Shown here one piece after another: positions 19,827-61,083 of a stretch of 64,000 nucleotides of DNA. Source of the stretch: a phage. Positions within the stretch are counted from its first letter, which is position 1; each line of letters begins with the position of its first letter. The stretch lies in sequence record NC_100327.1, one strand, 5' to 3'. The position numbers were made by a program, and so were the translations under genes. The notes beneath the pieces were generated by a model that was not told the DNA's origin, did no database searches, and worked only from the letters and a program-made list of their open reading frames with translations.

Positions 19827-20197
19827 TGATCGGTCTCCTTCTTGTTAAGTCTGAATACTGCAATAATAGCATTCCCAAGGTGCAGTGTCAAGTCATTTCC
19901 AAGATACCACAGCATCCCACGGTCATCTTTAATGAAAGGGTAACAATCTGGTGCCTTCCAGACATTGTACACTTTCCCAACCTGAAAGAAATCAGGCCCT
20001 GTTGGGATTTTGGTGCCAGGCCACACTTGAGATACCTGAACACACTCCACCTGCATAATAACAGGAATGGTCATGGATGTAAATGTTTTTGTTGGCTCTA
20101 CTACCATAAAAGTCTCCTCTTTGCTCAACAACACTTCCATGTGTTGATAGTTTACATTAGTGACAATCACCCCAATTACGACCACACAAGTATTCAC
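19823..20197 (-). CDS. small protein, tandem paralog family member (start probably downstream of the track start)
   Basis: FFQVGKVYNVWK...IKDDRGMLWY pattern; the track start overlaps the polymerase 3' end. Confidence 0.45.
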   Translation of the reverse strand: MNTCVVVIGVIVTNVNYQHMEVLLSKEETFMVVEPTKTFTSMTIPVIMQVECVQVSQVWPGTKIPTGPDFFQVGKVYNVWKAPDCYPFIKDDRGMLWYLGNDLTLHLGNAIIAVFRLNKKETDQ

Positions 20198-22934
20198 CTG
20201 TGATCTGGAACGGGACTCCCATCATTTTAGAAGCTTGCCAGAAGCAATGTACCACCATTTCGCCCACAGGACTCCAGATAAGTTCAAGCTTTCCGTCATC
20301 GTTCAAGATAGGATCGTACACCGTGTTTCCGTCTCTGTCAACCACTTCGTTTCCGTTTTCATCCTTGCGTGCCTTTTTGTACTTATGACCGTCGAACACA
20401 TGAAGTTTGGCCTCCTGCTCTGCCTTAAATGCTTCCAATTCTTCAATTGTGTCGAAGGTGTACACAGTCTTATACTTCGGTGTGTCAGGTACTTGAAGCT
20501 GATATTCGTCATGGTAATAGATAATACGACGAACACCTTCATCGTACCACCCACGCTTCACCATTTGGTGGTGCATAAGTATCCCAACCAAGTCACACAG
20601 CGATGCACCACCATTCTGTTGGTATGCATTAAGTAAAGAGTGTTTAGATCGGGTCCAGATGGCATGACCATCAAAAGAGTAGATAAACTTCTTACCCGTT
20701 GCTTCCCAGAATTTCTCCAGATCCTCTTTGCGCCCCTTAAGACCGGGGTTGGCATCCCAAAGTGCATCGATCACCCTTTGCCCCAACTCTGGGGAGATAT
20801 CCAGCATATCTGCAACTTTATCTTTTTGTGCCCCGTACATAACCCCATACGTGATAGGTTTACCGTCGTTACGAGACACCTCTCTGCCTGCTACTTTTGT
20901 ATATGCCTCAGCATTGTTTTGGTGTGCGTCCCCGTTACTTACAACATCATAGTACAAGCCGTTGTCGAACTCAAAGGCACCCCAAGCCCCGATAAGCTGC
21001 TCTAAGTTGGACCCGTCAATACCGATCTCAAAGTATCCAGGAGGAACACCCCACAAGCTACGCATCTCTTTACCCATAACCACTTTAGGAGATGGTTTAG
21101 GCATGTTTGCACAAATACTGTGTTTCTGTCGGGAAGTGTTTGTTAATCCAGAGCTTTTAGCAGGAAGCTTATGGTCAATCTTCAAACGTGGGTGATTAAG
21201 AAGACCAGTATCAACCTTATCCTCCTTGATTGGATCAAGGACCGATCTGCGGTTTCGCAATGATAACCACAAGACGATATCTTTAGCCATCTCTCCGTTC
21301 AATTTTTCAAGATTCGGACATAGGTGTCCAAACGTATCTTTCAGTTGCGGAGAAGTAATAAGTGCCCTGGCTTTTCTGCGTATTTTCCCGAACACTTCCT
21401 TTTTAATCCTTTCGGAGTTAGGAAAGCTTCGGAACTTGTGCACTGTTGTCTGAAACTTAGCATCAGTTTTGTTCCAGAAGTTGATAATTAGGTCACAATA
21501 CTCTGACTCTAAAAGCTCGTCCATGTATGCATATACTCGTGCATCAACATCTGCATCAGGTAGAGCTTTCTTCTTGCTGTCCTTAGTTACATCCTTAGTT
21601 CTCCACATTGTCGGAAGCCAACCAGCACTGATCAGGTATCGCTTAATGTCGTCCTGATTGCTGATTTTCATAGGTATCTTGCAATCAGGCATTCGCTTCT
21701 GCTGCAGATCACTTATTGCCTGATCCATCAGCTCTTTAGGTAAAGGTTGTGGTGTGGAGGTGCCCTTAATATAACCTCTCAAGAAATCAGCCATCTTGTC
21801 GGGGTCTTTGCAGCCCATCTCTTCGCACCATTTTATCCCCATCTTGCTGACATCTCCTGTGGAGGTAAATGCTCGCTTAGGCGGGGCTTTGAATTCTAAA
21901 GCGCTCATGTCTACAGGATAGCCAAGCTTATCTTTTAACCATTTCCAACCATTATTGGAGATTGTCCCATCTTGGTTAAACGGCTTTTCAGGGAACTTGG
22001 GCCGCTGAGACATTGACAACTCTTTTAAAGGAAGTTGTGGTTCAACACGATCAGCGATCTCTTTCATCCACGCATCGCAGCGGTCACGTAAAGCAATAGC
22101 CCCATCTATGTCGAAATACACACCCTGTCGAGCCTGCAGCTCCATCAGGAAATGCTGCAGCATGCCTCGGCGTAATGCATTCTTCCAGGTAATCTTCTTG
22201 AATCCTTTAGGCTTCTCTTTGGCAGGGTCATACATAAAGTTCTGCATGTCAGATTTGCCGTAGAATACACCTTTTGATTCCGCTACCAACTCTTTCCAGA
22301 GCAACTCCTGGATGATAACGTCCTCGAACACACGATCCACATATTTCCACAGCGGAAGATCGCGCCAGTCATCAATTTGAACTTTCTGGTTACCAAGGGC
22401 GTAGCCCCATGCCATAAGGCCGTGAGGACCAACAGGTTGCATTTTCTTAGTAACCGGGTTGAATACAGCGTCCGGACAACCTTTTGGTAAAGGGCGATCA
22501 GGCCACAAGATTCGGCTCATAGCCAACGTATCAAACAGGTTAACCTGGTGGTCGTTGATAGTCCCCATGCATTTAGGATCACGGAACATATCAAAATGAA
22601 TACCGGATAATCTTTCCATTAGCATAAAGTCATAACTGTAGCAGTTATGGCAGTTCAAAGCTGTTGGTGACCAGTCAGAATTGCCTGTAAGCCAACCTTC
22701 CAACTCCGAAAAATCTGCTATGCGAACTTCAAAATCTTTATAAAGAGTTTTCTTTGCCAGAATGAAGTTCTTAGCCTTTTCTATATCCTCCTCGGAGTAG
22801 TGTGTGCGGTCATTTAGAGGAAGGAACAGCATAAAACGGTTCTTATTCAGCTCTTTAAACAGACCGCAGTGATAATAAAGATCTGGGTCTTCCAAAAGCC
22901 CTGAGGCCTCCAGATCGAAGCACCAATTACTCAT
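20157..22934 (-). CDS. DNA polymerase, family A (T7-like), with N-terminal 3'-5' exonuclease
   Basis: Exo I motif FDLEASG at residues 6-12; motif A GIDGSNLEQL; motif B RNDGKPITYGVMYGA; motif C YYHDEYQLQV. Confidence 0.85.
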   Translation of the reverse strand: MSNWCFDLEASGLLEDPDLYYHCGLFKELNKNRFMLFLPLNDRTHYSEEDIEKAKNFILAKKTLYKDFEVRIADFSELEGWLTGNSDWSPTALNCHNCYSYDFMLMERLSGIHFDMFRDPKCMGTINDHQVNLFDTLAMSRILWPDRPLPKGCPDAVFNPVTKKMQPVGPHGLMAWGYALGNQKVQIDDWRDLPLWKYVDRVFEDVIIQELLWKELVAESKGVFYGKSDMQNFMYDPAKEKPKGFKKITWKNALRRGMLQHFLMELQARQGVYFDIDGAIALRDRCDAWMKEIADRVEPQLPLKELSMSQRPKFPEKPFNQDGTISNNGWKWLKDKLGYPVDMSALEFKAPPKRAFTSTGDVSKMGIKWCEEMGCKDPDKMADFLRGYIKGTSTPQPLPKELMDQAISDLQQKRMPDCKIPMKISNQDDIKRYLISAGWLPTMWRTKDVTKDSKKKALPDADVDARVYAYMDELLESEYCDLIINFWNKTDAKFQTTVHKFRSFPNSERIKKEVFGKIRRKARALITSPQLKDTFGHLCPNLEKLNGEMAKDIVLWLSLRNRRSVLDPIKEDKVDTGLLNHPRLKIDHKLPAKSSGLTNTSRQKHSICANMPKPSPKVVMGKEMRSLWGVPPGYFEIGIDGSNLEQLIGAWGAFEFDNGLYYDVVSNGDAHQNNAEAYTKVAGREVSRNDGKPITYGVMYGAQKDKVADMLDISPELGQRVIDALWDANPGLKGRKEDLEKFWEATGKKFIYSFDGHAIWTRSKHSLLNAYQQNGGASLCDLVGILMHHQMVKRGWYDEGVRRIIYYHDEYQLQVPDTPKYKTVYTFDTIEELEAFKAEQEAKLHVFDGHKYKKARKDENGNEVVDRDGNTVYDPILNDDGKLELIWSPVGEMVVHCFWQASKMMGVPFQITGEYLCGRNWGDCH

Positions 22935-23203
22935 ACTGTCTCCTCCTGTGTCTTCTCAGCATTCTTTCTTGCAGCTATTGCATCGTCCCTGTTCTTGAAG
23001 TATCCAAGGCATTTCCTTTTACCATCTACATAAATTCTGGCTACCCATCTTTCATGGGTTTTATCCCAATTCACCCCTGAGCAACCGCTGGTGTTATTAT
23101 ACTGCACGGCTCTTCCACTCTTGTGCGAAAAACCATTATCTTCGAAGAACTTTCTTGCCCACTCTGCCTCTTCAAAAGTTCTGTACTGGCCTAGCCAGAC
23201 CTT
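22931..23203 (-). pseudogene. Out-of-frame C-terminal AP2-domain extension of the HNH endonuclease gene
   Basis: The -1 frame after the HNH stop translates as KVWLGQYRTFEEAEWARKFFEDNGF ... GVNWDKTHERWVARIYVDGKRKCLGYFKNRDDAIAARKNAE, two AP2-type segments; its TGA overlaps the polymerase ATG as ATGA. Confidence 0.55.
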
Positions 23204-23664
23204 TCACCTACAGAGTCTGTGCCTTGAGCTACCCATGCCTCTCTTTCTTCAGAATAGTGCACCCCGACCCTGCCAGATTTGTTGTTGCTACGAGGTATCT
23301 TGCAACTTTTCTTTTTGTTATCTGTAGGTTCGAGTAGTTGCAAATTTTGAATACTGTTGTCAGCCACACCACCTGTTTCCCTTATCTCCTTGATGTGGTC
23401 AACCTCATACCCTTCCGGTACAGGACCGTTAAACATTTCCCAGATTATAACGTGGGCACCTTTAGTGCAATGCTTTCCTAGACTAACCACAGGCCTGCCA
23501 TCAGCATCTTGCCCCTTGTCAGCTCTGGAGCCTGCTGAAGTTTTAACATATCCTACACCGCTGCCTGCCAGAATGTCTATCTTCCAAAAAAGATTTTGAC
23601 CGTCATACTCCAATATTTCTGACCACAAGTGATTAGCTACACAGTGATCTCTGAACTCGTTCAT
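23191..23664 (-). CDS. HNH homing endonuclease with AP2-type DNA-binding domain start
   Basis: HNH-like block EVDHIKEIRETGGVADNSIQNLQLL; C-terminal SGRVGVHYSEEREAWVAQ begins an AP2 domain that continues out of frame. Confidence 0.7.
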   Translation of the reverse strand: MNEFRDHCVANHLWSEILEYDGQNLFWKIDILAGSGVGYVKTSAGSRADKGQDADGRPVVSLGKHCTKGAHVIIWEMFNGPVPEGYEVDHIKEIRETGGVADNSIQNLQLLEPTDNKKKSCKIPRSNNKSGRVGVHYSEEREAWVAQGTDSVGERSG

Positions 23665-23722
23665 AAAGTGTTCTCCTTAAAGGGGAGGCGGTTGTACTAC
23701 CCCTCCCACTCTTGGTTAAACA

Positions 23723-24838
23723 TTAAAAAGGCGTTTCATCATCCTCAAAACCAGGGACCTGGTCAGAGGATGGATCATCGTACTGGAGGTCTTCCTGCGT
23801 GTCAACAGGCTTAACAGTAGGAGTTACAACCTTATCAGCCACAACCTTGCCCATAGGTGTTTCTACAACTGCATGCTCCTGATCCTCAAACATAGCCTGA
23901 GGTCTCCAAACAACCTCCCCACCTTCTCCGTCTGTAAACATTTGCATTTCTTTGTCCCAGTACCAATTACTGGCATCATGGAACTTACCTGTGTGCGGGT
24001 CCATAACCAAAGTGTCAGCAATACCTAGAGTTTTTGCTGGACGGTTTTTAAGACCTACCAGACGGACACGTCCACGAGAACGATCCACCATTTCTTCGGC
24101 CTCGACACCTATGACTACCCAACTCAACTGTTCAAGCCCAGCCGATCCTCGCAAATTCTCTTTTCGCACAGGATACCAGAAAGGTAATGGGTTACCATCC
24201 TTGTCCTTAGGGGGCACAATCTCTGTACGTTTGAGGTGAGCGATCACCAAGATAAACACGTTAAACTGCTTACAAAACGCAGCCAGTTGGGTCATAGCCA
24301 TGTCCAGTTCTTTTCGCTCATCCTTAACATTAAGCCCTGAAATTACCATGGACAGGTGATCCAGCACAATATAACGACAATGGTACAGGCAAACCATTTG
24401 CTTAAGCTTGGTAATCAACTCGTCCACTGGAATAGACCCGAAATGTTTGAACACTTTGATTTTTCCAGCTTTTGCCCATGATTGGTGAATCTCTGCGTGT
24501 TCTTGATCAGTTAAAAACTGGCTAGGATCTTCAACAAACTCTTTAACATCAAACCCTAACTGGTTTGCATACAAGGAGTTAATTGCTTCCTCTGGGCCCT
24601 CCTCAAGATGAATCATGCATAGACGATCATCCTCTTCGTAATCATCAGCCTTTGGACATGTCGGGTCCATTAGGTATCTTGCAATACAGTGTTCCAGTTT
24701 TTTAGCTACAGTTGTTTTACCGCCTCCTGATGGACCTGTAAGCATTACGAGTGTCCCTTTGTGCAAGCCTTTTAGCATTTTTTGCAGTTTTGGGAACTCT
24801 GCGCTGATATCTACCCCGTTGGAAGTCTTTTTCCGCAA
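23723..24838 (-). CDS. replicative DNA helicase (DnaB/T7 gp4 helicase-domain type) with acidic C-terminal tail
   Basis: Walker A LTGPSGGGKTT; YIVLDHLSMV block; ends DDETPF. Confidence 0.8.
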   Translation of the reverse strand: MRKKTSNGVDISAEFPKLQKMLKGLHKGTLVMLTGPSGGGKTTVAKKLEHCIARYLMDPTCPKADDYEEDDRLCMIHLEEGPEEAINSLYANQLGFDVKEFVEDPSQFLTDQEHAEIHQSWAKAGKIKVFKHFGSIPVDELITKLKQMVCLYHCRYIVLDHLSMVISGLNVKDERKELDMAMTQLAAFCKQFNVFILVIAHLKRTEIVPPKDKDGNPLPFWYPVRKENLRGSAGLEQLSWVVIGVEAEEMVDRSRGRVRLVGLKNRPAKTLGIADTLVMDPHTGKFHDASNWYWDKEMQMFTDGEGGEVVWRPQAMFEDQEHAVVETPMGKVVADKVVTPTVKPVDTQEDLQYDDPSSDQVPGFEDDETPF

Positions 24839-24858
24839 AGATTCGATAGAGAAGTCTT

Positions 24859-25701
24859 CTAAATCCGATACAGCATCCGGTACATACTTACAGGATGCCG
24901 GAACATGTTTACAATATCTTCCAGCTTTTTAGCCTTCAGCATGTCACGGATATCTTTTACACCGTCAGGATCGTTTACTTCACCAGGGTACTCTACGTGG
25001 TAAACGTTATCAGCCATCAAAAATGCTGCGATATTGTGCGTAGCCTCAACACCTTTAATGACGTGTTTTTGCTTCTCTACCTCGTTAGCTGCATCGTTAT
25101 CCATTGCCAGCACAACTGTTCCATAGCTACGGATAAACTTCTCATTGTTTGCAAAAGTATCTACTGCGTTTGCACATCCGCAGTTAATTCCAACAAAAGG
25201 TAGGCAGGGTTTTCCTGCCAGATCACCACCGTTGATAACTGCATCGATCCCGTCCTGTACCTCTTTAGCCCACTGCTTCACCTTTGCCGGGGCTTTAGCG
25301 TTGGTGAGAATCCCTTTTACTTGTATCTGATATGCAGCCTGCCATGCTGCAATAACATCACCTTCTCCCTCGCAAACGTTAATCTGCTTACGGTTGTTGG
25401 AAGATGCACACAGCTTTTGACCAAACATCTGGGAGTTAGCCTTTACGATGCCAACAACGGAGAAATGGCCCCTTTGCTCTTTAGGAATCGTCCAGTCGCG
25501 CTTTTTGAAACCGGACAGATTTCCGTAGCGGTCGTAATATGGGAAATATGTTGCAGTGACTGTCACACCGTCTTCTTGGGACAATGCTGATCGCACACCA
25601 AAATATTGTGCAGCCATCAGACCGATATTTTGTTGTGGGACAGGGACAATTTTAGTATTTTCTAAAACAGTCTCTACAGTTTCAAACTTCTTTTTCATCA
25701 C
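24859..25701 (-). CDS. DNA primase (TOPRIM domain, T7 gp4 primase-like)
   Basis: TOPRIM motifs NVCEGEGD and VLAMDNDAAN; directly upstream of the helicase; no zinc-binding domain seen. Confidence 0.75.
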   Translation of the reverse strand: MMKKKFETVETVLENTKIVPVPQQNIGLMAAQYFGVRSALSQEDGVTVTATYFPYYDRYGNLSGFKKRDWTIPKEQRGHFSVVGIVKANSQMFGQKLCASSNNRKQINVCEGEGDVIAAWQAAYQIQVKGILTNAKAPAKVKQWAKEVQDGIDAVINGGDLAGKPCLPFVGINCGCANAVDTFANNEKFIRSYGTVVLAMDNDAANEVEKQKHVIKGVEATHNIAAFLMADNVYHVEYPGEVNDPDGVKDIRDMLKAKKLEDIVNMFRHPVSMYRMLYRI

Positions 25702-25790
25702 GATAGTCTCGTTTCACACTTCCCCCACTTTTATACTTAGTTGCTTTCGGGTTTGGCTCACCGAAACGGTTGTATGCAGATGCCATAAAT

Positions 25791-26585
25791 TTACTTCCCA
25801 TTAATTCTGCTCCTTACTACAGGCTCGTTTGCTAAGAATACAGCTTTTGCCCAGCCACGTGGTGTGAGGCTTCGGATCATCTTCGTTCTTGCACTCTTCC
25901 CACCCAGCTTGGCGTGTTGCATGGAATACCCGCTAACCGCGTCAACTATTTGCGGGACAGGTTTTGTGGCCGGGATTATAAATCCATTACCTATCCAGCC
26001 GCAAGTTATTTTTGGATAGGCATCACGTGGAGCTATAAATTCAGGAAACCAGGGGTTTACATCATCCTCCGGTAAATACCCGCCATAGTCAGAAGGATGA
26101 AAACGGTAATCAGGTTTGCGCCACAGTGTGGACATAACACCAACAGGATTCTCTACATGCCACGGGCAATCGTAAATCTCTCCCAGCTCTTCCGCAACCC
26201 GAGCATCCTTTACAGCATTAATTTGGATCAAAGGATCCTTAGCCAGCTTTTTCTTAAAATGTGCAGCACCTGATACCGCTAAATGCGTGCACGGAGGAAA
26301 TGCAAGAATAAAGTCTGGAGCTGGATACATGCAAAAAGTTTCCTGAGGGAACCATGGGTCAATCCAATAATCCACATAGTGAATGTTAGGATGATCGGTT
26401 ATCACCTCTGCATAACTGCCGTGGTCAGCACCTTCTGCATTAAAGCACAGGCACAGGTACCCAGCTTTTGCCCAGTCAATAACTGCACCACCAGACCCGT
26501 CAAATAGACTCCACACAACACCTTTGTGGTAGTGTTCTTTGTAGATGAATTTCAATTTGCTGTCTCCTAATGCAAAAAGCCCCAC
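25791..26585 (-). CDS. DNA cytosine-C5 methyltransferase-like protein (short, non-canonical; start uncertain)
   Basis: Motif I LFDGSGG, motif IV FPPCT (PCQ-like), motif VI HVENPVG; only about 264 aa; an RBS AGGAGA plus TTG at about 26557 is an alternative start. Confidence 0.55.
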   Translation of the reverse strand: MGLFALGDSKLKFIYKEHYHKGVVWSLFDGSGGAVIDWAKAGYLCLCFNAEGADHGSYAEVITDHPNIHYVDYWIDPWFPQETFCMYPAPDFILAFPPCTHLAVSGAAHFKKKLAKDPLIQINAVKDARVAEELGEIYDCPWHVENPVGVMSTLWRKPDYRFHPSDYGGYLPEDDVNPWFPEFIAPRDAYPKITCGWIGNGFIIPATKPVPQIVDAVSGYSMQHAKLGGKSARTKMIRSLTPRGWAKAVFLANEPVVRSRINGK

Positions 26586-27090
26586 CCTTTCGGGCAGGGC
26601 CTAGTGTTAAACCCGGATACCTATTGTTATACTCGGTGGATACCAATGTCAAATCTAAATTTAAAATTTCTTGCATCTCATAATATGCGTCCAGGGTTAG
26701 ATACATTTCCCCATCCTTTTCTACATACTTGTCCAAGTGCTTGAGGCATTTCGGATAACTATCAAGTGCAGCTTTCAGGCACTCAAACTCTGTGCTGTTG
26801 ATGAATCCTTCCATCTTGGCTACCCGTTCTGGGGTAATGATAGCACTGTAGTGAGATTTAGCTTCCTGAATGCAATGGGTCCAAGCATCAACCTTCTCTT
26901 CGAAAAGTCCAAAGAACTTCTTTTTGGTGAGCTTCAGATTCTTTAAGTGCTTAAGCACTCGGTTGCCGATTACAGCCACATCACGAAACTTAAGAATCAC
27001 TTTGTCGATATCCTCGCGACCTATTTTCACAAAACAGGCCTTACACATTTCAGGGGAGGAATAACCAACTTTCCACATAAAATCTGACAT
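26500..27090 (-). CDS. hypothetical protein (196 aa; 3' end overlaps the terminator hairpin)
   Basis: ORF-track ORF; the C-terminal tail looks low-quality, so the true stop may differ. Confidence 0.45.
   Translation of the reverse strand: MSDFMWKVGYSSPEMCKACFVKIGREDIDKVILKFRDVAVIGNRVLKHLKNLKLTKKKFFGLFEEKVDAWTHCIQEAKSHYSAIITPERVAKMEGFINSTEFECLKAALDSYPKCLKHLDKYVEKDGEMYLTLDAYYEMQEILNLDLTLVSTEYNNRYPGLTLGPARKGGAFCIRRQQIEIHLQRTLPQRCCVESI
26570..26602 (-). terminator. Terminator-like hairpin, near-identical copy of 15690-15725
   Basis: Plus-strand gccccaccctttcgggcaggg; U-run then RBS AGGAGA on the minus strand. Confidence 0.4.
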
Positions 27091-27102
27091 ACCACCTTCT
27101 CC

Positions 27103-44461: not shown

Positions 44462-44687
44462 GAGCCATGAGGCGAAGATATCATTACCTGATGTGGAAGT
44501 TATATCAAAATGCTGCCAAAGCCTATCATATCATGTTTGGCAATGACGATCACTACATCATGTTACATCTCACCGCTATTGAGCATCACAATGAGTGGAT
44601 TCATGCAATCGTGGCAGGTGATAAAGACTTTAAGTAAAGTATACCTCAAAAACGTATAGTGCGGCTTTCTAGACGGAGACTGATTAA

Positions 44688-45068
44688 ATGTGCAAGTGTA
44701 AATCCTATAATTGGAAAGTGAAAGGTGCCAAGCATCCAAATGTTATCGTTGATGTGCCTAAAAATCTTCGTGACGGCAAAAAACGTGTGTGCCTTGATAA
44801 GTGTATGGCTAAGCCTATCATGAGTTTGTGGGCAGCAGGTTTGAAAACGCTAAACTGCTGCTGTGGTCATAACAAAGATATTCCAAGCATCATTATCCCA
44901 GAAGATGCAGATCCTAAAGCTTATGCCAAAATACTGACCCGCTATCCCAGCACCTTCCTGATCGGAAAATGGTGTCACGATGAACTCCAATGGTGGATAG
45001 CCTATGGTAGTATAGGCACTACTTTTGGCTTCCCAGCTTTGTCAGAGCGCTATGTCAAAGTGTCATAA
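44688..45068 (+). CDS. Cys-rich hypothetical protein (126 aa)
   Basis: ORF-track ORF; CKCK and NCCCGH clusters suggest metal binding. Confidence 0.45.
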   Translation: MCKCKSYNWKVKGAKHPNVIVDVPKNLRDGKKRVCLDKCMAKPIMSLWAAGLKTLNCCCGHNKDIPSIIIPEDADPKAYAKILTRYPSTFLIGKWCHDELQWWIAYGSIGTTFGFPALSERYVKVS

Positions 45069-45172
45069 TAGAATTTAAGGCCTCAAACGAGGCCTGTGCC
45101 TTCATAAATTTCTCCACCCTGTGCGATTGCCTTCCTGAATAAAATACCCTCTCAGATCTCTTAAAATTAAGC

Positions 45173-45637
45173 TTGACACCACCACCAGATCTATATATAA
45201 TTCTCACCAACCAAACAGAGGAGATCGTCATGGATAATCTTGCAGATGTAAATGTCGAAATTGTTAAACTAAAGTTCTTGGGCTTTCGAGACCCTTATTC
45301 TTTAACAGCCATACTAATGGATACTCACTTCACACCAGGTAAAGAGTACACTGCCTTCCGTTATATTTGCGGAGATCACGAATCAGCTTACAGTGTGAAT
45401 ACAAACCTCGGAGAGGGATATTTCATCAGAGATATCACAGATCACTTGTGGGGTATGTGGGAGTTGGTGGAGGAAGAGAATAAATCCCTTCCTAAAGAGA
45501 TTTGGGTGCACACCTTCCACACAGGTAAGTTTGGAGGTACGGAACATAAGTCTATCCACTATGATGAAGAAAGTGCCATCAAACAACAAGCTGTGCTTGG
45601 TGGATCTATAGAAAAATTTGTTAAATGCGAGGACTGA
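45173..45637 (+). CDS. hypothetical protein (154 aa; start possibly the ATG at 45231)
   Basis: ORF-track ORF. Confidence 0.45.
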   Translation: MTPPPDLYIILTNQTEEIVMDNLADVNVEIVKLKFLGFRDPYSLTAILMDTHFTPGKEYTAFRYICGDHESAYSVNTNLGEGYFIRDITDHLWGMWELVEEENKSLPKEIWVHTFHTGKFGGTEHKSIHYDEESAIKQQAVLGGSIEKFVKCED

Positions 45638-45640
45638 GAA

Positions 45641-45841
45641 ATGGCTGATTTTTGTAAAGATTGCTCTGAAGAGTTGTTTGGCTTTGACTGCAAAGATTTG
45701 GAAGGTCTGATCACTGAGGATCAGTGGAAGGAAGGCTATGCAGCACCTGTTATTTGTGAAGGTTGTGGCTATACCTATGTTGACCATAAAGGTAAGCGCG
45801 TCAAGCCGTCTGAAGATGGGGCATGTTGGGAGTATTACTAA
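45641..45841 (+). CDS. small zinc-ribbon protein (66 aa)
   Basis: CKDC ... CEGC Cys pairs. Confidence 0.45.
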   Translation: MADFCKDCSEELFGFDCKDLEGLITEDQWKEGYAAPVICEGCGYTYVDHKGKRVKPSEDGACWEYY

Positions 45842-45846
45842 CTATA

Positions 45847-45880
45847 AAAAGAAAGGGGCCGTTTGGCCCCTTTTTATTTA
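45847..45880. terminator. Bidirectional rho-independent terminator between convergent blocks
   Basis: Hairpin aaaggggccgtttggcccctttttattt with U-runs on both strands. Confidence 0.7.
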
Positions 45881-45888
45881 CCCCCTTG

Positions 45889-48800
45889 TTAACGAGAAAA
45901 GGTTGCGTAGGCTTCTAGACGATACTGCTGGTCACCAGGGAACATAACACCTATAGAGGCTGTCCCTAGAATCCTGCCTTCCTTTCCAGACTCCATTCTG
46001 AACCCTACCCATCCTGAACTCCTTGCAGCCTCGATGTTGTCGCTATACCCGAAAGTGGCAAGATCGTCAACACCAGCCCCAAACAGCAACTGAAGCTGAC
46101 TTCTCGGAAGCCCTATAATTTCAGGAATATACGCACCAAAGTACACCATCTGCCCTACCTTAGGACCGCTGCCGTACTCCATCGGTTTGCTTGTAGAGAA
46201 AGTCTTCATACCAGAAGTACCTGCCGGATTAGGGTATGCCCCATTTGTTGCTGTACCTATCCACATTCTCCACTGTGGTGCCATCTGTTTGACAGTAAAA
46301 GATGTTGAAGACGTTTTGCGCCCTGCATCATCAGTAACTACAAACTTTATGGTGACATTCCCAGTAGCTTTAAATGTTACCAGCCCTGTGGCAGCATCCA
46401 CTGTTGCAATGTTGGTATTACTACTTTCCCAAGTCTTTCTAATACCGGATACGTTGGAAGGGGTAATAGAAGGTTCCTGCATCTGCAGTTTACCACCCAC
46501 AATCCCTATGCCGTTACCTGGATTATACAGCACACCAACCTCGTCTACAATGTTCCCTGCTTTGAGACTATACTTCCTTGAGAAGTTGTAGGTTCCGTTA
46601 TAAGTGTGTGTCCCTGAGAAGGTGACATCTGCCTTCCCGTAAGAGATGCAAACCAAAGCATACTTCCTGTCAGGCAACGTTTCTCCAGTCTCTGGGTGAG
46701 TTTTACCCACCTGGAACACGCTCGGGTCAGTAGAGTCGTGACTATCGCTAATGGAGCTTGGACCTCCCATCAACTGTGACAAACAATTCCTTACCCATGT
46801 CCAGTTATTATCACTGGAGAAGTCCACAGTCAAATCAAACACAACCCACTCATTCGGCTTCCACACAGGTGTTGCAATGGACTTGCCTACACCACCTCCT
46901 TGGAGTGTTGCCGACTGTTCGGTGATCAGGGCCGCATAGGCCAGAGTCCCTAAACTCAGAGTCTGGCTTGCTGTCCTCACTACCTTAGAATCAGCATCTG
47001 TGAAGTTGTTGATGATTTGGAATGTGCCATAAGTGTTTTTACAGGTAATTCTGGCGTTCAGCGTGTCAATCTTCCTCACATCTGCCATAGCAGTGTTAGA
47101 CACAGAGAAGTCAGAAGCTTTAGCTGAGTTTGCCGCAACAGCAGGATCAACGTTAAGAGTTGCGTTGAACTGACAGGCAGGGGTAACCAGCAGCTTGTTA
47201 TCACCTATTTGCTTCCATGAAATACTTTGGACAGGTAGATTCCATTTAATACCTGAGAAAACTTTAGCAACCCTTGGCCCCAAAGCTCCAGTCCTGTTGT
47301 CTTTACAGCACATAGACATGGTGATCGTTGACGGAGTTGCCTGACCGAACAATTCCTGTGCTTTTGCAGAGGACATAGTGTAGAAATTGTCCTTAACAAA
47401 CTCATCAGCGGCTAAAGATCCGTCAGCCCTCCACCACTGCACCTGGTACCCGGTCTTATCCCAGCCACCGACCTGCTTCAGGTCTTCCCAGGAGATTTCC
47501 AGATCCCCAGTGGTAGGGTTGATTGCAGCAGCCCCTGGTGTTCCAGAGGACCATAATGGGATATCGAACCACGCTGGTTTAGCAGACTGCACTGCGCTGG
47601 GACCTATTGCGGCAGCAAGTTGCTGGCCCATCAATACGCGAGCATCTTTCACCAGACCCCACTCGATCATAGACCCAGAGTAACCTTCTTTCTTGTAGGC
47701 TGAGGATCCGTTCAAATGGATGAGTCGGCTTGTGCCAAAGTTATGTGCTCCACCACCGTTGTCGTCTGCAAAATTGGTTATGATTCTATCCCTGATATTT
47801 TTCCATGCCCTGCCCCCAATCTCATAGTCATGGTCATAACATCTTTGCAGTGTTGTCCAGCAAATGATCGCCATCCTTCTACCATCGCTGAATCCAAAGG
47901 CCTGATCGTTAAGCTCTCTCCACAAGTAGCAGTTAGTGGTCCACATGGCCCTATGAATGTTAAACCAGTTTATAGATTTGGCTGAGTTGTCCCACTGAGT
48001 CCCAGGTAATTCAGGCCATACTGCATTAACCAGCATGTCTTCTGTTCCTGCATCAACCAAGAACCCTCTTACCTTCTTACCCATGCCTACCCTATCTTTT
48101 GCAATCCAACTGCCAAACAATCTCAGTTTTGGACCATAGACAACATCTTCCGGATGCTCAAAAGAAATATATTTTAGGTATATTGTAGGGTCACCATAGG
48201 TGCCATCACAAACAGCTTTGTGCATGTTCTCGCCAAGGTCTAGACGAAGTCCTGTTACAACTTTAGATGTGTCGGTGAATTTGTCTGTTAAATCAAACTC
48301 ATACCACCACCAACCTGCACCCAACAATACTTTCTTACAACGCTGTGCATCTGTATCAGATATTCTCTTATCACCTGCAAAAGGCGAGTCAGCAAACTGA
48401 TAGTGCAGAGCAATCTCAAAAGGATGTGTGGATGTCCCGTTTTCTGCAAGAACTTGTTTACCTATTAAGTCGCACTTAATGATCATCACAACACGTTTGT
48501 ACCCGTTTGTTACCGGAATTTGCATAGACATGGATGTCCCGTCCATGTTTGATCTCAGTGCAGTCATGATGATATAAGGGTCAACGGCATTGCCCAGAGT
48601 CTCAGGACCGGGGATTATCTTATACTTCTTGACCTGCCCCATGATGTAGTCACTTGCGTAAGTTGCCGCATTCAAGCAAGATCCCCCACCAGGTAACTCA
48701 CCAGGTCCCCAGAAAAATGCGCCGTAACAGTTGTAGAACCACTTGTTAGGATCGTATTTATTCTTGAAGGTCTGAACCTCGTTGGCCTGTTTTGTCAAGA

Positions 48801-51525
48801 AAACCTGCGTGTCTGTGAAGATTGCAGGGTTTACTCTCGCCTGTCTTGGAGGGTAACCTGTAGTTTGGTTAAACCACAAATTACAAGAGTAATCCCTCAT
48901 ATAGTCATAATCAGAGTATTTGTTTACATCTTCGTTCCAACACATGTTTAGGTTGGTACCGCCCATGCATACAATATATTCTGCGACATACTTATCACTT
49001 CTGGTAGGAATACCTATGAACCATCTGTTAACAGGCTCATCCCAAGCTGTGCGCTCATCTTTAACGCAGATAGCAATCCAGTCATGTGTTCCTGTTTTCT
49101 TGCACACATCTCGCTTCATACCATAGTAGAACTCTTTAGTATCCGGCTCAGGTGCATTTATCAGGTAACTCCATGCCTGATTTGCATAAGTTCCATTGGT
49201 GCGTGGATCATGATCAAAGGCATACATGATGATCCTTTCCCCACCAAGATGTTCGCCAAGAGTAACTTTGACATTCACATCGCCGTAACCGTTGCGAACA
49301 ACATCCATATTATCAATAGAGATACCTCTGGGCGTGTAGGCAATTTTCAGCGAGTTATCTTCACTAGTGCCGCCAAGTGTAATCCCTATGTTGTTTGTTG
49401 TCCCGTCGACATATCTTACTGTAGCTTCCCAGCGTATTCCGAAATATCCTGCATCATGGCTGACAATTTTCAGTGTACGAGCCCCAGAGCTAGGTTTTCC
49501 AGGATCAGGCCAAGGATCTGGATGTTCATGGACAGTCAACGATGTTCCGTTTTGCTCGTTGACCTGCAACATTTTACCGCCTCTGCCGTTAGGGTTGAAC
49601 TCCCACAAGGCTTGTGTTTTCACAACATTGTCATACGTGGTACGTCTCTGATCGTAGATCTCTTGAGTCACATCGTAGGTTACAGACCCGGCATCCATTC
49701 TATGGAGTCGTACCATATACGATGTATCGCCTTCTACAACAGGTTGAGCTGCGTTAAGCCCGAAGTATACAGTATCGTTGACATGGAACTGTTTGTTTCT
49801 ACCGACAGTATGCCACTTGCCGTTGGACGGATACGCAGGAACTATGGTGTTCCAGTTCAAAGTTCTTGTCGTATGGGTTCTGCCTGTGCCATGCTTGTCA
49901 TGATAGGTTATTTTTACAGAGTACAGGCCACGTCTGTTAACATTTCTGTTATACTGGGTAACAACAACTTCGTTGGCCCCACCGTGGTTCCAGTTGGTGG
50001 AGAATTGGTAATTTGCATCTGTAACAACCGTACCTGCAGCATTTACCAACTCAATCTTGTCAATAATGAACGTAGCCCCCTCTGGCTGAGGCTTCAATTT
50101 CATCTTGACCGTGTCACCAATGTAGATATTGCTAACACTACTAACACCATTAACGTCGAAAATATCATCAACGCCCCAACTGTCTACTGGGACATTTTTA
50201 TACCAATTCTCAGGAACCTCTGTGAACCCCTGACTATTAAGTCTGCCGCCAAACAGGTTATTAGAGCCTGCAAAACTTCCCCTTGGGATGCCTGACCACC
50301 AAAGTTTGCCATTAACAACAGTAAAGGTCCCTAAGAAACCTTCTCTGTGGATACCCTGGAAATAAACACTTTCTGTCCAGCTTACTGGCATCCGTTGCTC
50401 GACGTATTTAGCCGTAGCCAGAGCCTGATAGTGAATAAAATTAGCCCTAGGACTGTTGTTTGCAGATTGTGCACCAATATCATTGCACAGATTGCGAGAG
50501 AAGCCACGATACTGTTTGGTGCCATTATTGAAGAAAATGCCACTTGTGCCGTATCCACGAGCCATTATCACCTCATGGGTGTAGGTGATATTTAAGGAAC
50601 GCCATGTGTCATCTCCCCAGACGTCTTGCCCGTAGAATACGTTAACAAGCTGTTGGTCATCAGGTTTGTGCATCCTTTCTGTGGCTATAATTGCACCATT
50701 AGGTCCACACATGAACCCTTTCCATGTCTCGCCCACCGGGATGCCTTTAAACTGGTCAAGAGTCACATGCTCGGCTGGATAAACTAGTGTGTTTTTGCTG
50801 TTATTTCTTAAGAAATCGTAACCTGCAATCCAGAATCCGTTAGGACCACCAAAAATAACCGAGTTGTCATGAACTTCACAATTAATTCTTGGATTTTTCC
50901 AAGGACCTGTCTCTGGACTTTCAGATGTTTCACCGATCTTAACTGGAGTAGCGTGTTGACTTTTGTCAACATGAAGAGAGCCGTAAGTATTATTGCCAGA
51001 GCCGTACAGGTGAAGCATACCATCAGCCTCTGGTGCAGCAATTACCCACACTGTATTGTTTACGCCACCCATTACTTCAACAAGTCTCTCAGGATGGGTG
51101 TCCAAATGCAACCCTGTTACGATCTGTTCCGGCAAAGGTGTCCACTCTCTGACACAAACATCGTTTCCACCTGCTGCCTCCGATCCGATAAGACCAGCTG
51201 TGCAACCAATATAGAAAAATTTATTATCGAATGTGCGGATTACAAATGCACGGTCAGCTCTCCAAACATGGTCTACGTTCCAAGCTGCCTCATTAGGATA
51301 GTTTATTGTATCAAGATCTCCAGTCCGACACTCTCCGAACCTATTATAGCCAGTAATATTAAGCTGACCATCATCAAAAAGTATAGCTAAGCTATTTACA
51401 TAGGATACTGTGTTGCTTGTACCATCACTGTTGTCTATTGGGTATGACAGAACAGCAAGTTCCTTAATTCCACCCCTCTTATCGAGGAAATGACGACCAA
51501 GTTTTAGCAAAGGGATTGGAAGCAT
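45889..51525 (-). CDS. very large virion protein (1878 aa), putative tail fibre/host-specificity protein with Ig-like domain
   Basis: Single long ORF; Big_2-like segment near the C-terminus (ATVDAATGLVTFKATGNVTIKFVVTDDAGR); in the structural block. Confidence 0.55.
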   Translation of the reverse strand: MLPIPLLKLGRHFLDKRGGIKELAVLSYPIDNSDGTSNTVSYVNSLAILFDDGQLNITGYNRFGECRTGDLDTINYPNEAAWNVDHVWRADRAFVIRTFDNKFFYIGCTAGLIGSEAAGGNDVCVREWTPLPEQIVTGLHLDTHPERLVEVMGGVNNTVWVIAAPEADGMLHLYGSGNNTYGSLHVDKSQHATPVKIGETSESPETGPWKNPRINCEVHDNSVIFGGPNGFWIAGYDFLRNNSKNTLVYPAEHVTLDQFKGIPVGETWKGFMCGPNGAIIATERMHKPDDQQLVNVFYGQDVWGDDTWRSLNITYTHEVIMARGYGTSGIFFNNGTKQYRGFSRNLCNDIGAQSANNSPRANFIHYQALATAKYVEQRMPVSWTESVYFQGIHREGFLGTFTVVNGKLWWSGIPRGSFAGSNNLFGGRLNSQGFTEVPENWYKNVPVDSWGVDDIFDVNGVSSVSNIYIGDTVKMKLKPQPEGATFIIDKIELVNAAGTVVTDANYQFSTNWNHGGANEVVVTQYNRNVNRRGLYSVKITYHDKHGTGRTHTTRTLNWNTIVPAYPSNGKWHTVGRNKQFHVNDTVYFGLNAAQPVVEGDTSYMVRLHRMDAGSVTYDVTQEIYDQRRTTYDNVVKTQALWEFNPNGRGGKMLQVNEQNGTSLTVHEHPDPWPDPGKPSSGARTLKIVSHDAGYFGIRWEATVRYVDGTTNNIGITLGGTSEDNSLKIAYTPRGISIDNMDVVRNGYGDVNVKVTLGEHLGGERIIMYAFDHDPRTNGTYANQAWSYLINAPEPDTKEFYYGMKRDVCKKTGTHDWIAICVKDERTAWDEPVNRWFIGIPTRSDKYVAEYIVCMGGTNLNMCWNEDVNKYSDYDYMRDYSCNLWFNQTTGYPPRQARVNPAIFTDTQVFLTKQANEVQTFKNKYDPNKWFYNCYGAFFWGPGELPGGGSCLNAATYASDYIMGQVKKYKIIPGPETLGNAVDPYIIMTALRSNMDGTSMSMQIPVTNGYKRVVMIIKCDLIGKQVLAENGTSTHPFEIALHYQFADSPFAGDKRISDTDAQRCKKVLLGAGWWWYEFDLTDKFTDTSKVVTGLRLDLGENMHKAVCDGTYGDPTIYLKYISFEHPEDVVYGPKLRLFGSWIAKDRVGMGKKVRGFLVDAGTEDMLVNAVWPELPGTQWDNSAKSINWFNIHRAMWTTNCYLWRELNDQAFGFSDGRRMAIICWTTLQRCYDHDYEIGGRAWKNIRDRIITNFADDNGGGAHNFGTSRLIHLNGSSAYKKEGYSGSMIEWGLVKDARVLMGQQLAAAIGPSAVQSAKPAWFDIPLWSSGTPGAAAINPTTGDLEISWEDLKQVGGWDKTGYQVQWWRADGSLAADEFVKDNFYTMSSAKAQELFGQATPSTITMSMCCKDNRTGALGPRVAKVFSGIKWNLPVQSISWKQIGDNKLLVTPACQFNATLNVDPAVAANSAKASDFSVSNTAMADVRKIDTLNARITCKNTYGTFQIINNFTDADSKVVRTASQTLSLGTLAYAALITEQSATLQGGGVGKSIATPVWKPNEWVVFDLTVDFSSDNNWTWVRNCLSQLMGGPSSISDSHDSTDPSVFQVGKTHPETGETLPDRKYALVCISYGKADVTFSGTHTYNGTYNFSRKYSLKAGNIVDEVGVLYNPGNGIGIVGGKLQMQEPSITPSNVSGIRKTWESSNTNIATVDAATGLVTFKATGNVTIKFVVTDDAGRKTSSTSFTVKQMAPQWRMWIGTATNGAYPNPAGTSGMKTFSTSKPMEYGSGPKVGQMVYFGAYIPEIIGLPRSQLQLLFGAGVDDLATFGYSDNIEAARSSGWVGFRMESGKEGRILGTASIGVMFPGDQQYRLEAYATFSR

Positions 51526-51537
51526 TGTGTTCTCCAG

Positions 51538-51566
51538 ATAAGAAAACCGCCCCGTCAGGAGCGGTT
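51538..51566 (-). terminator. Terminator-like hairpin
   Basis: Minus-strand hairpin ccgctcctgacggggcgg followed by TTTTCTTAT. Confidence 0.4.
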
Positions 51567-51573
51567 AGATATA

Positions 51574-53319
51574 TTAACGTTGTGCAATTACTACGTCTAC
51601 AATATCACCAACACCACAATACGTTAATTGCAGCAAGGTAACACTGTTAGCCTTGTTGTTAATAACAGGTGTTGCCGACAGGATAGCATACTTATCGTGC
51701 AAAGTCACGTTGTGACCTACAGCATCCTGAATGACATAGATAACTGCAGTGAATGGATAAGGTTTATCTTCCGCTGATGTCCCAGGCCACTGTCCTATTG
51801 TAAAATCCCCTTTCGCGTGGACAACATACATGCTGGCCTGCCCGTTAGGTGTCCATGTCCCACTGGACGCGTCAACCTCCTCTAAGTCAAAATCTACCTT
51901 TCCTGCGTGGAAAGTAGGGGCAGTAATGGTTTTACCCGCCTCAATTTCTTGAGAGGTGGTTATCTTACCACTGGAGTTAATGCCATTACAGACAAAGTTG
52001 ACATTAGAGAAGTCTGGCAGCCACCCGGTCACTGTGCCGGATATTTCAAGGTTGTGAAGGTAGGTGGTGCCAGTCCCTGCGGCGTTTAAACTAACATCTC
52101 CATTTACCTGCAAGTTTCTGGTAATGTTGCAGTTTTCAGAGTTTGCAGTTGTTGCAGTTAAAGTGGTGGTGGTTAGCTCGGTAATTGTACCTTTATTGGC
52201 TGTAAGCCCTTCTCCTTCAAAAGTTGCACGCTCATTGACTCTTAGAGTATTCAGAGCTATATTTTGGATAGAGGCTGTACCTCGAATAACTACAGACCCG
52301 CCAACCTCCAAATCGCCATTTATCAATGCATCACCCGTGCTTTCAATATAGCTAGGGTAGATCATGGTGCCATCGACAGAGTATGTTATCCCTGTAACGG
52401 TACCTGTCACCTCAAGGTTCTTAACCCTGGTGGTCCCATCGACCTGCAATGTCGGTTCGGTTGCTGCCTTCATGGCATTACCACGAATGTACACGTAGTC
52501 AAAAAAGTTATTACCCAGACCATCAAAATGCACATCGTTATTATTGGCCACTGGTTTCCCAGAAGTTATAGTGTCAGCTATAACCCTGTGGGTGGACACT
52601 TCATGAGGTTGCAGCTCTGTACTTCTCCAGTCTGCATGCTTAGGATCGCTCCACGCAAAAGTAAGTGTAGAAGTATTTGCCGTGAGGATTAGATTCCTAA
52701 AGCGTGCAGTAGAATCTGCCCCATTAACAGGTCCATGTAAGGTAAGGGTGCCACCAACTATAGTGTTAGCGAGTTCTGTAAGACCTTTTACCACCAAAGA
52801 CCCTACAGTAACTTTCATCCCCTCCATGGCTTTAAATATGCTATCAACATAGTCAACAACAAACTCTGTGTTTGCTATGGACTCTGACTTATCGTCCATT
52901 GGAGGTGTAGGTACTCGTGGGTCACCTTCGAACCTCGGGCTGTTAAGTTTTGCGTAGTATTTTGCCATTACTGCAGAGTCGGTATATAATCTCCAGTTTG
53001 GAGATTGTGAAGGATCTGCTGGCATTCTAACCGGGTTAGATTTTGATGCTGCGGGAGCGTACCACCACTGAGGGCCTGTGTCCCCTTTAAACTCGTACAG
53101 CTGGTTAAAAACTGTTGTGGATGCACCATACGCCCAAGGGATCGGTGGCGTTTTAAAATAAAGGTTGTCAAGCATGGCTTTTCGTACCGTAGGGATGGTG
53201 GTCCCATCCTCTACGACAACTTCATCCACAGCGTTACCGTTGACAACCAAGTGCAAACGTTCAGAATCAACAATTACTTGATCTACCGCCTGCTCAAAGC
53301 TTGTCATGTCTTGCGCCAT
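51574..53319 (-). CDS. putative tail fibre/tailspike protein (581 aa)
   Basis: Repetitive beta-rich segments (LEVTGTVTG, LQVNGDVSL, LEISGTVTG); structural-block context. Confidence 0.45.
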   Translation of the reverse strand: MAQDMTSFEQAVDQVIVDSERLHLVVNGNAVDEVVVEDGTTIPTVRKAMLDNLYFKTPPIPWAYGASTTVFNQLYEFKGDTGPQWWYAPAASKSNPVRMPADPSQSPNWRLYTDSAVMAKYYAKLNSPRFEGDPRVPTPPMDDKSESIANTEFVVDYVDSIFKAMEGMKVTVGSLVVKGLTELANTIVGGTLTLHGPVNGADSTARFRNLILTANTSTLTFAWSDPKHADWRSTELQPHEVSTHRVIADTITSGKPVANNNDVHFDGLGNNFFDYVYIRGNAMKAATEPTLQVDGTTRVKNLEVTGTVTGITYSVDGTMIYPSYIESTGDALINGDLEVGGSVVIRGTASIQNIALNTLRVNERATFEGEGLTANKGTITELTTTTLTATTANSENCNITRNLQVNGDVSLNAAGTGTTYLHNLEISGTVTGWLPDFSNVNFVCNGINSSGKITTSQEIEAGKTITAPTFHAGKVDFDLEEVDASSGTWTPNGQASMYVVHAKGDFTIGQWPGTSAEDKPYPFTAVIYVIQDAVGHNVTLHDKYAILSATPVINNKANSVTLLQLTYCGVGDIVDVVIAQR

Positions 53320-53328
53320 GATTTCTCC

Positions 53329-53595
53329 TTAAGCTTTTTGCTCTTCGTTTTTAACGTGGTCAGGGTGCTGGCAACCCCACCGGAGCGAGATGAATTTGCT
53401 AATAAGCTGGGGGCAAGCTACTGAAGGCGCGTATATCCACGCATACCATTCAGGAAGCGTATCATTATACCCCATATGAATAAACACCCCAGTCATCACC
53501 GCCATGCCTATGTTCGACCATAGCTTAGTTTGGGACACTTTCGTAGGGTCATCAGATGCCGCAACCAGTCCCCATAAAAACTGAGTTAGTTTCAT
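53329..53595 (-). CDS. small membrane protein (88 aa)
   Basis: Hydrophobic segment NIGMAVMTGVFIHMGY; follows the fibre paralog. Confidence 0.35.
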   Translation of the reverse strand: MKLTQFLWGLVAASDDPTKVSQTKLWSNIGMAVMTGVFIHMGYNDTLPEWYAWIYAPSVACPQLISKFISLRWGCQHPDHVKNEEQKA

Positions 53596-53606
53596 TTACC
53601 CTCTTT

Positions 53607-54650: not shown

Positions 54651-54739
54651 CGCGTTCTCCTGAGAAAATTCCTTAGGACTATTTTAACACTTTAGAGAAC
54701 AAAATGCAAGAACGGAGTCCTTTCCGTTCTGACCTTTGT

Positions 54740-55054
54740 TTACCTTTTACTATGCTCTACGAGCATGTGCAAAATCTTTTGTACATCAGCTCGGATACCG
54801 GAGACATCTGTCCTGACATCCTGCTTAAGGTCGTTAATATCGGCCTCTAGCTTGCTTAACCGGGTCTCGATAACGGAATCAAGTTTATCTTTTGTAACCA
54901 TACTGTTTTTCACTAAGATGAGGTCTTTCTCCAGTTCATCCAACCTCTTGGAAATGCCTTTCCATTTGGTGTGCCACTGGTTGAAAGCCCATACACAGAT
55001 CGGGACAACGGTACCCATGCAGATACCGTACAATGCCGCCAAATCCAACTCCAC
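54740..55054 (-). CDS. small membrane/coiled-coil protein (104 aa)
   Basis: N-terminal transmembrane segment ALYGICMGTVVPICVWAF, then a coiled-coil. Confidence 0.35.
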   Translation of the reverse strand: MELDLAALYGICMGTVVPICVWAFNQWHTKWKGISKRLDELEKDLILVKNSMVTKDKLDSVIETRLSKLEADINDLKQDVRTDVSGIRADVQKILHMLVEHSKR

Positions 55055-55065
55055 AACACCTCCTC

Positions 55066-55650: not shown

Positions 55651-55664
55651 GCTAGTCCTCCGAT

Positions 55665-56705: not shown

Positions 56706-56717
56706 TTTATCTCCTGA

Positions 56718-59476: not shown

Positions 59477-59487
59477 ATCTCGACGCC

Positions 59488-60978: not shown

Positions 60979-61044
60979 GTCACTCCTCCGGTATGAAAAT
61001 CTCTACAAGGTATTTTACCAAATTTTGTAACAATAGTCAATCTG

Positions 61045-61076
61045 AGCATAAAAATAAACCCCGCCGAAGCGGGGCT
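61045..61076 (-). terminator. Rho-independent terminator-like hairpin
   Basis: Hairpin ccccgccgaagcgggg followed by TTTATTTTTATG on the minus strand. Confidence 0.45.
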
Positions 61077-61083
61077 TTAAAGG

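Follow-up and report, generated by a model that had tools for sequence, protein, structure and literature searches.

A split HNH-AP2 homing endonuclease gene between primase/helicase and polA in a Vequintavirus record

HNH-AP2 homing endonucleases of phages and cyanobacteria consist of an HNH nuclease followed by AP2-type repeats, and the AP2 DNA-binding domain has reportedly been linked to HNH endonucleases. We know of no HNH-AP2 member this close to the gene described below that has been characterized biochemically. In T4-like phages, free-standing Seg and Mob endonucleases spread by "intronless homing," in which flanking DNA is co-converted. The gene considered here is itself already known and has been annotated in several genomes of the genus Vequintavirus, for example as FFH2 ORF207 (AHN83797.1), JES2013 Ec2_00211 (AGM12600.1), navn_182 (QHR75082.1), WalterGehring bas51_0076 (QXV85586.1), and O157 typing phage 4 ECTP4_00442, where it is labeled "AP2 domain protein."

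The window analyzed here, a 64,000-nucleotide stretch of phage record NC_100327.1, comes from a Vequintavirus (rV5-like E. coli myophage) and holds a copy at the same site, with the same ATGA overlap with polA, the same HNH_3 domain, and the same two AP2 repeats. While the annotated Vequintavirus copies are single 735-nt ORFs encoding 244 amino acids, the window copy is in two pieces and is one G short. As with Seg and Mob of T4-like phages, the gene is intergenic between essential replication genes, shows presence/absence polymorphism among close relatives, has co-converted flanks around the insert, and adjoins diverged sequence, as a target or immunity patch would show. It differs from them in being HNH-AP2, rather than GIY-YIG or HNH with other binding domains.

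Gene identity and the two pieces

Every gene in the region lies on the minus strand, in the order primase/helicase (23723 to 25801), endonuclease gene, and polA, with primase/helicase directly upstream and an intact 925-aa family A DNA polymerase (20157 to 22934) directly downstream. Judged from sequence, a free-standing HNH-AP2 homing endonuclease gene with predicted homing activity occupies the locus between primase/helicase and polA. The initial annotation had recognized an HNH-AP2 gene of the homing endonuclease type, and this identity, HNH plus two AP2 repeats, was correct. The HNH_3 domain (Pfam PF13392) was found by profile match at residues 68 to 116 with 46.7 bits against a cutoff of 24.8 (E = 2.4e-12), and the catalytic residues D89-H90, N103, and N107 could be read from the translation as EVDH(90)IKEIRETGGVADN(103)SIQN(107)LQLL. 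The HNH catalytic motif is intact because it lies upstream of the frameshift. Although the layout matches that of other HNH-AP2 homing endonucleases, the AP2 domain (Pfam PF00847) matched the repaired protein in two stretches with 27.8 bits, under Pfam's gathering cutoff of 33.3 bits (E = 3.2e-6). AP2 repeats 1 and 2 were 39% identical to each other (E = 6e-7), and PHROG 99, "HNH endonuclease," matched the protein at E = 2e-51. A sequence search of the PDB with the repaired protein gave chance-level matches only and no usable relative, with a weak match to ERF096 (5wx9) at E = 0.66.

The 5' piece of the gene (23664 to 23191, minus strand) is a 157-aa ORF that terminates at a TAG at 23193 to 23191, confirming the earlier call that the HNH ORF stops at 23191 inside its first AP2 domain. 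It comprises 155 native residues followed by Ser-Gly-stop, holds the HNH_3 domain, and reaches ~27 residues into AP2 repeat 1. Residues 1 to 155 match the intact 244-aa products of WalterGehring, navn, FFH2, JES2013, O157 typing phage 4, C2, and C5, with only a few substitutions. The 3' piece continues in the −1 frame (22931 to 23203, minus strand), which opens at 23203 immediately after a TGA at 23206 to 23204 and runs for 90 codons plus a TGA, encoding what is left of AP2 repeat 1 and the whole of repeat 2. Its terminal TGA (22933 to 22931) overlaps the polA ATG (22934 to 22932) as ATGA; the AP2 remainder, the −1 relationship of the two pieces, and the overlap with the polymerase start had likewise been described correctly.

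Insert junctions and the homing footprint

Alignment with rV5_ev168, which lacks the gene, placed the inserted mobile segment at 22935 to 23669 on the minus strand (735 nt here, 736 nt if intact), where it takes the place of 5 nt, TGTAT, that separate the Shine-Dalgarno sequence of polA from its ATG in gene-free genomes. The Shine-Dalgarno sequence AAGGAG (23673 to 23678, minus strand, read from the alignment) serves polA in insert-free genomes and the endonuclease gene in carriers. Within the 3' end of the endonuclease gene, a strong Shine-Dalgarno sequence read directly from the minus strand, AGGAGGAG (22947 to 22940), stands 5 nt upstream of the polA ATG and travels with the insert as a substitute polA ribosome-binding site. 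Although the insert captures the ribosome-binding site that polA used originally, it also carries a replacement, so that polA stays expressed. The initial annotation had described the endonuclease gene as coupled to the polymerase start. The ATGA overlap stands, but coupling is not obligatory, because the strong Shine-Dalgarno sequence precedes the polA ATG.

Nine records, representing seven distinct genomes, carry the gene. The other relatives examined, among them the gene-free genomes nimi, CarlMeissner, and rV5_ev168, match the query flanks alone, and the junctions are exact. No phage record was 100% identical to the query, and complete E. coli genomes gave no match. A plasmid-collection record, CP057073.1, the only one in that collection, also matches only the flanks of the gene. 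Outside a patch of ~2 kb centered on the endonuclease gene (22038 to 24028), the backbone of the window is ~99.9% identical to insert-free nimi and CarlMeissner. Within that patch, the window differs from nimi by 62 substitutions, compared with 0 to 3 in the flanking 2.5 kb and 4.3 kb, and from the carrier WalterGehring by only 11. Co-conversion tracts extend ~0.9 kb on the polA side and ~0.36 to 0.47 kb on the primase/helicase side. On these substitution counts, the donor-like patch reads as a clean homing and co-conversion footprint.

A mechanism can be proposed from knowledge of the family and from the footprint in this window. During mixed infection, the two AP2 repeats would bind the insert-free allele near the polA start, the HNH domain would cut that allele, and recombinational repair would copy the gene and its flanks from the carrier genome. 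The first 14 codons of polA (22893 to 22934, minus strand) are recoded in all carriers relative to insert-free genomes, with 15 of 42 nt different and 4 amino acid changes; the start of the nimi allele, without the insert, reads ATGAGTATGTGGTC..., and that of the carrier allele reads ATGAGTAATTGGTG.... The polA start of phage Murica is like that of genomes without the insert and has 77% identity to that of the window. We infer that these codons may serve the endonuclease as a target or immunity patch.

Origin of the split

The region from 22931 to 23664 measures 734 nt in the window and 735 nt in every relative. Alignment placed the missing base at 23200 to 23201, where the plus strand reads CC in the window and CCC in all eight intact relatives; on the minus strand, the relatives read GAAAGGGTCTGG and the window reads GAAAGGTCTGG, a change from GGG to GG. 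The lost base was therefore a G of the GGG run and not, as the initial annotation had proposed, part of the neighboring A-run (AAA), and the reading frames part after Arg155. The comparison with intact homologues that had been suggested as a check found one continuous ORF in eight of eight copies: seven phage records and one 137-kb human gut metagenome contig, all independent genomes, have this gene at this position as an intact 735-nt, 244-aa ORF with GGG. These eight retain the intact ORF of a homing endonuclease gene, and the window copy, frameshifted after codon 155, does not. At the nucleotide level the window copy is 99.0 to 99.5% identical to the intact copies, and it carries two private synonymous substitutions, at 23000 and 23003. 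The exact 157-aa truncated protein had no record among 153 billion gene positions. Scans of viral contigs and of genome contigs for both alleles of the shift site found none, and a metagenome scan for the two alleles found one contig, with the intact allele.

The missing G belongs to a cluster of four private 1-nt indels that fall inside 3.4 kb of the window (23200, 24889, 25684, and 26627), and further private 1-nt indels occur at 11158 and 15720. Each of the indels besides 23200 is contradicted by up to nine relatives. All six are gains or losses of one base in runs of 1 to 3 identical bases, and inspection of the indel sites by eye showed no common sequence or methylation motif, such as CCWGG or GATC, that might account for systematic base-calling errors. 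Between 24029 and 27093, the window differs from nimi and CarlMeissner by one substitution (24597), yet by three 1-nt indels; as a baseline, nimi and CarlMeissner, two independent assemblies, differ from each other by 33 substitutions and 1 indel in 48 kb. Two of the private indels, at ~24889 (AA to A) and ~25684 (AA to AAA), split the primase/helicase gene, which all relatives have as one 693-aa ORF, and the indel at 26627 falls in the gene next to it. The helicase half that follows these breaks has no ATG or Shine-Dalgarno restart, and a phage with such breaks is therefore not expected to replicate. The affected runs are short (2 to 3 bases), unlike the long homopolymers where errors are commonest, an observation that counts against error.

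Three explanations had been offered for the split: a decaying gene, a sequencing error, and a programmed frameshift. Error and decay both remain, with error favored by the nearby private indels, and the third does not. Programmed −1 ribosomal frameshifting, transcriptional slippage, or a functional two-protein split would yield either an HNH-only protein together with the full-length fusion or the nuclease and the AP2 DNA-binding part as separate proteins, and of all the readings considered we give this one the least credence. The two frames do overlap by 13 nt, a −1 shift would restore the protein, AGG, a rare codon in E. coli, lies in the overlap, and the stop codon lies within a 5-bp hairpin (CUGGC-UAG-GCCAG). 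However, none of the zero-frame heptamers from 23230 to 23188, which cover the overlap and its surroundings, fits X XXY YYZ, and the longest homopolymer in the overlap, A3, is far too short for transcriptional slippage. RNA structure around the shift site looked unremarkable (z = −2.06 for 126 nt, with 7 of 200 shuffles folding equally well), the same hairpin sequence occurs in intact genes, and an internal GTG at 23107, read directly, has no convincing Shine-Dalgarno sequence. With the split absent from all eight homologues, each a single ORF, nothing about it is conserved; on this ground, and for want of a slippery heptamer in the 13-nt overlap, programmed frameshifting was rejected as a conserved mechanism.

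The window sequence and its relatives suggest that the split is most likely a base-calling, sequencing, or assembly error of the source record, in which case the real gene would equal the intact 244-aa ORF of all relatives. Error is favored over decay because the record has other private 1-nt indels nearby, two of them in the essential primase/helicase. A real deletion ranks second and is unlikely, though well short of implausible; it would mean that the endonuclease gene invaded a nimi-like lineage and has only very recently been inactivated there, as in the decay phase of the homing cycle. What it encodes would then be a 157-aa HNH domain without DNA-binding AP2 repeats, unlikely to home, while the downstream AP2 fragment would probably be untranslated and polA would keep its expression through its own Shine-Dalgarno sequence, whose strength (22940 to 22947) would make the truncation harmless to the phage. 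Decay is the expected fate of homing endonuclease genes once they have invaded a lineage, when selection on them is weak, and a real frameshift is therefore plausible in principle. An otherwise undamaged copy fits a very recent event, and the two private substitutions imply that some private change is real and that the copy came from an unsampled donor, which could carry a real deletion. Against this, two of the four clustered indels would destroy an essential gene, which points to data quality, not biology; none of the eight other copies is frameshifted, and the truncated protein is without a record elsewhere. It is very improbable that all four clustered indels are real, as scars of error-prone repair synthesis during the homing event. 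If they were, the sequenced molecule would be a freshly converted, damaged, possibly nonviable genome, and would document from nature that the repair of double-strand breaks during phage homing can be mutagenic.

Value of the locus and its record

With the gene already annotated publicly and the split most likely a record error, the finding matters little in itself. Its practical value is a quality flag on the source record at 23200, 24889, 25684, and 26627, and a recheck of the record is advised because an uncorrected record would have primase/helicase annotated as a pseudogene. Of modest scientific interest besides, nimi/CarlMeissner without the gene and the window genome with it form a natural, near-isogenic pair, which sets the limits of a co-conversion tract of 2 kb and indicates polA codons 1 to 14 as the likely target or immunity site. 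With the tract bounded and a likely target in hand, the specificity of the enzyme is therefore directly testable.

Two reading frames and eight intact homologs

The homing endonuclease gene (22931 to 23664) lies on the minus strand, as does every other gene in this stretch of the window, and is read in two pieces. The 5' piece is a 157-amino-acid open reading frame (ORF) from 23664 to a TAG at 23191, containing an HNH_3 nuclease domain at residues 68 to 116 (46.7 bits against a Pfam cutoff of 24.8), with the motif residues D89-H90, N103, and N107 readable directly in the translation. The 3' piece, in the −1 frame, opens directly past a TGA at 23206 to 23204 and runs from 23203 to a TGA at 22933 to 22931, which shares ATGA with the ATG of polA, the gene for a 925-amino-acid family A DNA polymerase (20157 to 22934, minus strand). 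Fusing both pieces in silico produced a protein with two AP2-like repeats, which the Pfam AP2 model matched in two stretches (E = 3.2e-6, below its gathering score) and which align with each other at 39% identity (E = 6e-7). With the HNH domain, both repeats, the −1 frame, and the ATGA overlap all found, the initial annotation accurately described an HNH ORF ending at 23191 inside its first AP2 domain, with the remainder in the −1 frame from about 23203 to a stop codon overlapping the polymerase start.

The surrounding region is 97 to 99% identical to rV5-like Escherichia coli myophages of the genus Vequintavirus, and the same gene occupies the same site in nine phage records that amount to seven distinct genomes (WalterGehring, navn, FFH2, JES2013, O157 typing phage 4, and “Campylobacter phage” C2 and C5). 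All five annotated carriers (the first five named) encode it as a single 735-nt coding sequence, called a putative HNH endonuclease, homing endonuclease, or AP2 domain protein; the unannotated C2 and C5 records each translate to one intact 244-amino-acid ORF, and a pattern scan revealed an eighth independent intact copy in a 137-kb human-gut metagenome contig. Comparison with intact homologs, the check proposed initially, therefore returned single ORFs in eight of eight copies. It is an already known gene, FFH2 ORF207, with counterparts in the other carriers. The exact 157-amino-acid truncated protein was not on record in an exact lookup across 153 billion gene positions. The GenBank records for “Campylobacter phage” C2/C5/C12... 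(loci L006, L007, and L015; MG065655 and MG065659) are flagged UNVERIFIED with C. jejuni as the stated host; these genomes are Vequintavirus and share about 98% identity with E. coli phages, and the host label is probably wrong.

A missing G within a cluster of private indels

The gene in the window is 734 nt long, compared to 735 nt in annotated carriers. Alignment with relatives contained one gap, with GAAAGGGTCTGG in relatives and GAAAGGTCTGG in the window on the minus strand (plus strand, CCC versus CC at 23200 to 23201). This single gap identifies the lost base as a G of the GGG run, not an A of the adjoining AAA run where the shift was originally placed.

Three readings had been offered: sequencing error, a decaying endonuclease, and a programmed frameshift. 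The last was rejected on slippery site, fold, and conservation. Only 13 nt, from the −1-frame TGA to the zero-frame TAG, are available for a shift, no X XXY YYZ heptamer occurs in this overlap or nearby (the longest run is A3), the RNA fold is unremarkable (z = −2.06), its small hairpin is found equally in intact genes, and the frameshift is not conserved because all eight homologs are single ORFs.

The choice between error and mutation was informed by one-nucleotide run-length changes private to the window, scored against nimi, CarlMeissner, and up to seven more distant relatives. The endonuclease gene is absent from nimi and CarlMeissner, which align to 97% of a 25-kb query with 99.8% identity. 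Including the change in that gene, 3.4 kb holds four private indels, the others being at about 24889 (AA to A) and 25684 (AA to AAA) in the primase/helicase gene and about 26627 (T to TT) toward the 3' end of the gene beyond it (all plus strand). From 24029 to 27093, these three indels accompany a single substitution (24597) relative to nimi and CarlMeissner; across 48 kb, those two genomes show 33 substitutions and one indel between them. There were no private indels from 26.6 to 44.6 kb (versus nimi) or from 46.3 to 64 kb (versus WalterGehring), and such clustering suggests a local data-quality problem. The primase/helicase gene (23723 to 25801, minus strand) is a single 693-amino-acid ORF in nimi, CarlMeissner, WalterGehring, navn, FFH2, JES2013, and rV5_ev168, and is cut in the window into ORFs of 39, 280, and 371 amino acids, with no ATG or Shine-Dalgarno restart for the helicase part. 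A phage with such lesions in an essential gene should not replicate, and the primase/helicase split is likely caused by sequence errors. The endonuclease split is accordingly most probably an artifact of the record. A genuine, very recent inactivation is a less probable but plausible alternative, as decay is the expected fate of such genes and the window copy carries two private synonymous substitutions (23000 and 23003), against which stands the local indel cluster, with two of its members breaking the primase/helicase. Anything more exotic is highly improbable.

Other length differences were also present. In a conserved hypothetical gene (26500 to 27090, minus strand), the indel near 26627 precedes the stop codon by about 20 nt and extends the ORF from 160 amino acids in relatives to 196, into the cytosine methyltransferase gene. 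In the early region, private indels occur at 11158 (CCC to CC, in a small hypothetical ORF of nimi) and 15720 (GGG to GGGG, between annotated nimi genes), both plus strand, and the recorded lengths of long runs differ from those in nimi and CarlMeissner at 3880 (C7 to C5), 4172 (T6 to T5), 4545 (C8 to C7), and 5769 (T8 to T14).

Insertion site and polA start

The insertion junction is exact. In genomes without the insert, the sequence is ...AAGGAGAAC-TGTAT-ATGAGT(polA), and in carriers a 736-nt segment stands in for TGTAT. The endonuclease gene begins behind the former polA Shine-Dalgarno sequence AAGGAG (23678 to 23673, minus strand), and the segment ends with a new AGGAGGAG at 22947 to 22940, 5 nt ahead of the polA ATG. 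Thus, polA retains a ribosome-binding site, and of the coupling first suggested, the ATGA overlap stands but obligatory coupling does not. Between the primase/helicase stop and the Shine-Dalgarno sequence (23679 to 23722, minus strand), a G+C-rich hairpin with TTT directly after it (GGGAGGGG...CCGCCTCCCC-TTT) is kept with or without the insert and may be a terminator or RNA-stabilizing element.

Codons 1 to 14 of polA distinguish all carriers from insert-free genomes, with differences at 15 of 42 nt and in four amino acids, and give way to several hundred bases of identical sequence. The first 75 nt (22860 to 22934) are hypervariable, most of 110 Vequintavirus records being 77 to 85% identical to the carrier allele, with a few intermediate alleles (e.g., phage PDX, 90.7%) outside the nine carrier records, compared to about 97 to 98% for the remainder of polA. 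This start may be a target-site escape hotspot. Separately, polA contains an insertion at about 20510 in WalterGehring, FFH2, navn, and C2 (loci L010, L012, L011, and L015), about 0.85 kb in the first two and shorter in the others, which is absent from the window, nimi, JES2013, and rV5_ev168. The WalterGehring insertion looks intron-like, with polA annotated as two joined pieces around a 507-nt putative homing endonuclease gene.

A putative homing footprint

Relative to nimi and CarlMeissner, 62 substitutions are confined to 22038 to 24028, where the window resembles WalterGehring-type carriers; flanks of 2.5 kb and 4.3 kb have almost none, and the backbone outside this 2-kb patch is about 99.9% identical to these insert-free genomes. 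The pattern suggests that a nimi-like genome received the gene by homing, and the patch would be a clean, natural record of co-conversion around it, extending about 0.9 kb in the polA direction and about 0.4 kb in that of the primase/helicase gene. The predicted AP2 repeats would bind the target, the HNH domain would cut it, and the gene would then be copied during recombinational repair, with the recoded polA start a likely recognition or immunity site. The tail-fiber region (46270 to 64000, 44600 to 52000) is mosaic, matching WalterGehring at 98.7% without gaps across 17.7 kb but carrying up to 127 mismatches per kb versus nimi.

The split gene is thus confirmed as an observation, and its original interpretation has partial support. 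The endonuclease belongs among the HNH-AP2 enzymes of phages and in its behavior resembles free-standing homing endonucleases from T4-like phages; nothing at this locus is new in kind. In practice, four positions of the source record are flagged for quality, and a natural near-isogenic pair of carrier and insert-free genomes makes the target of the enzyme testable.
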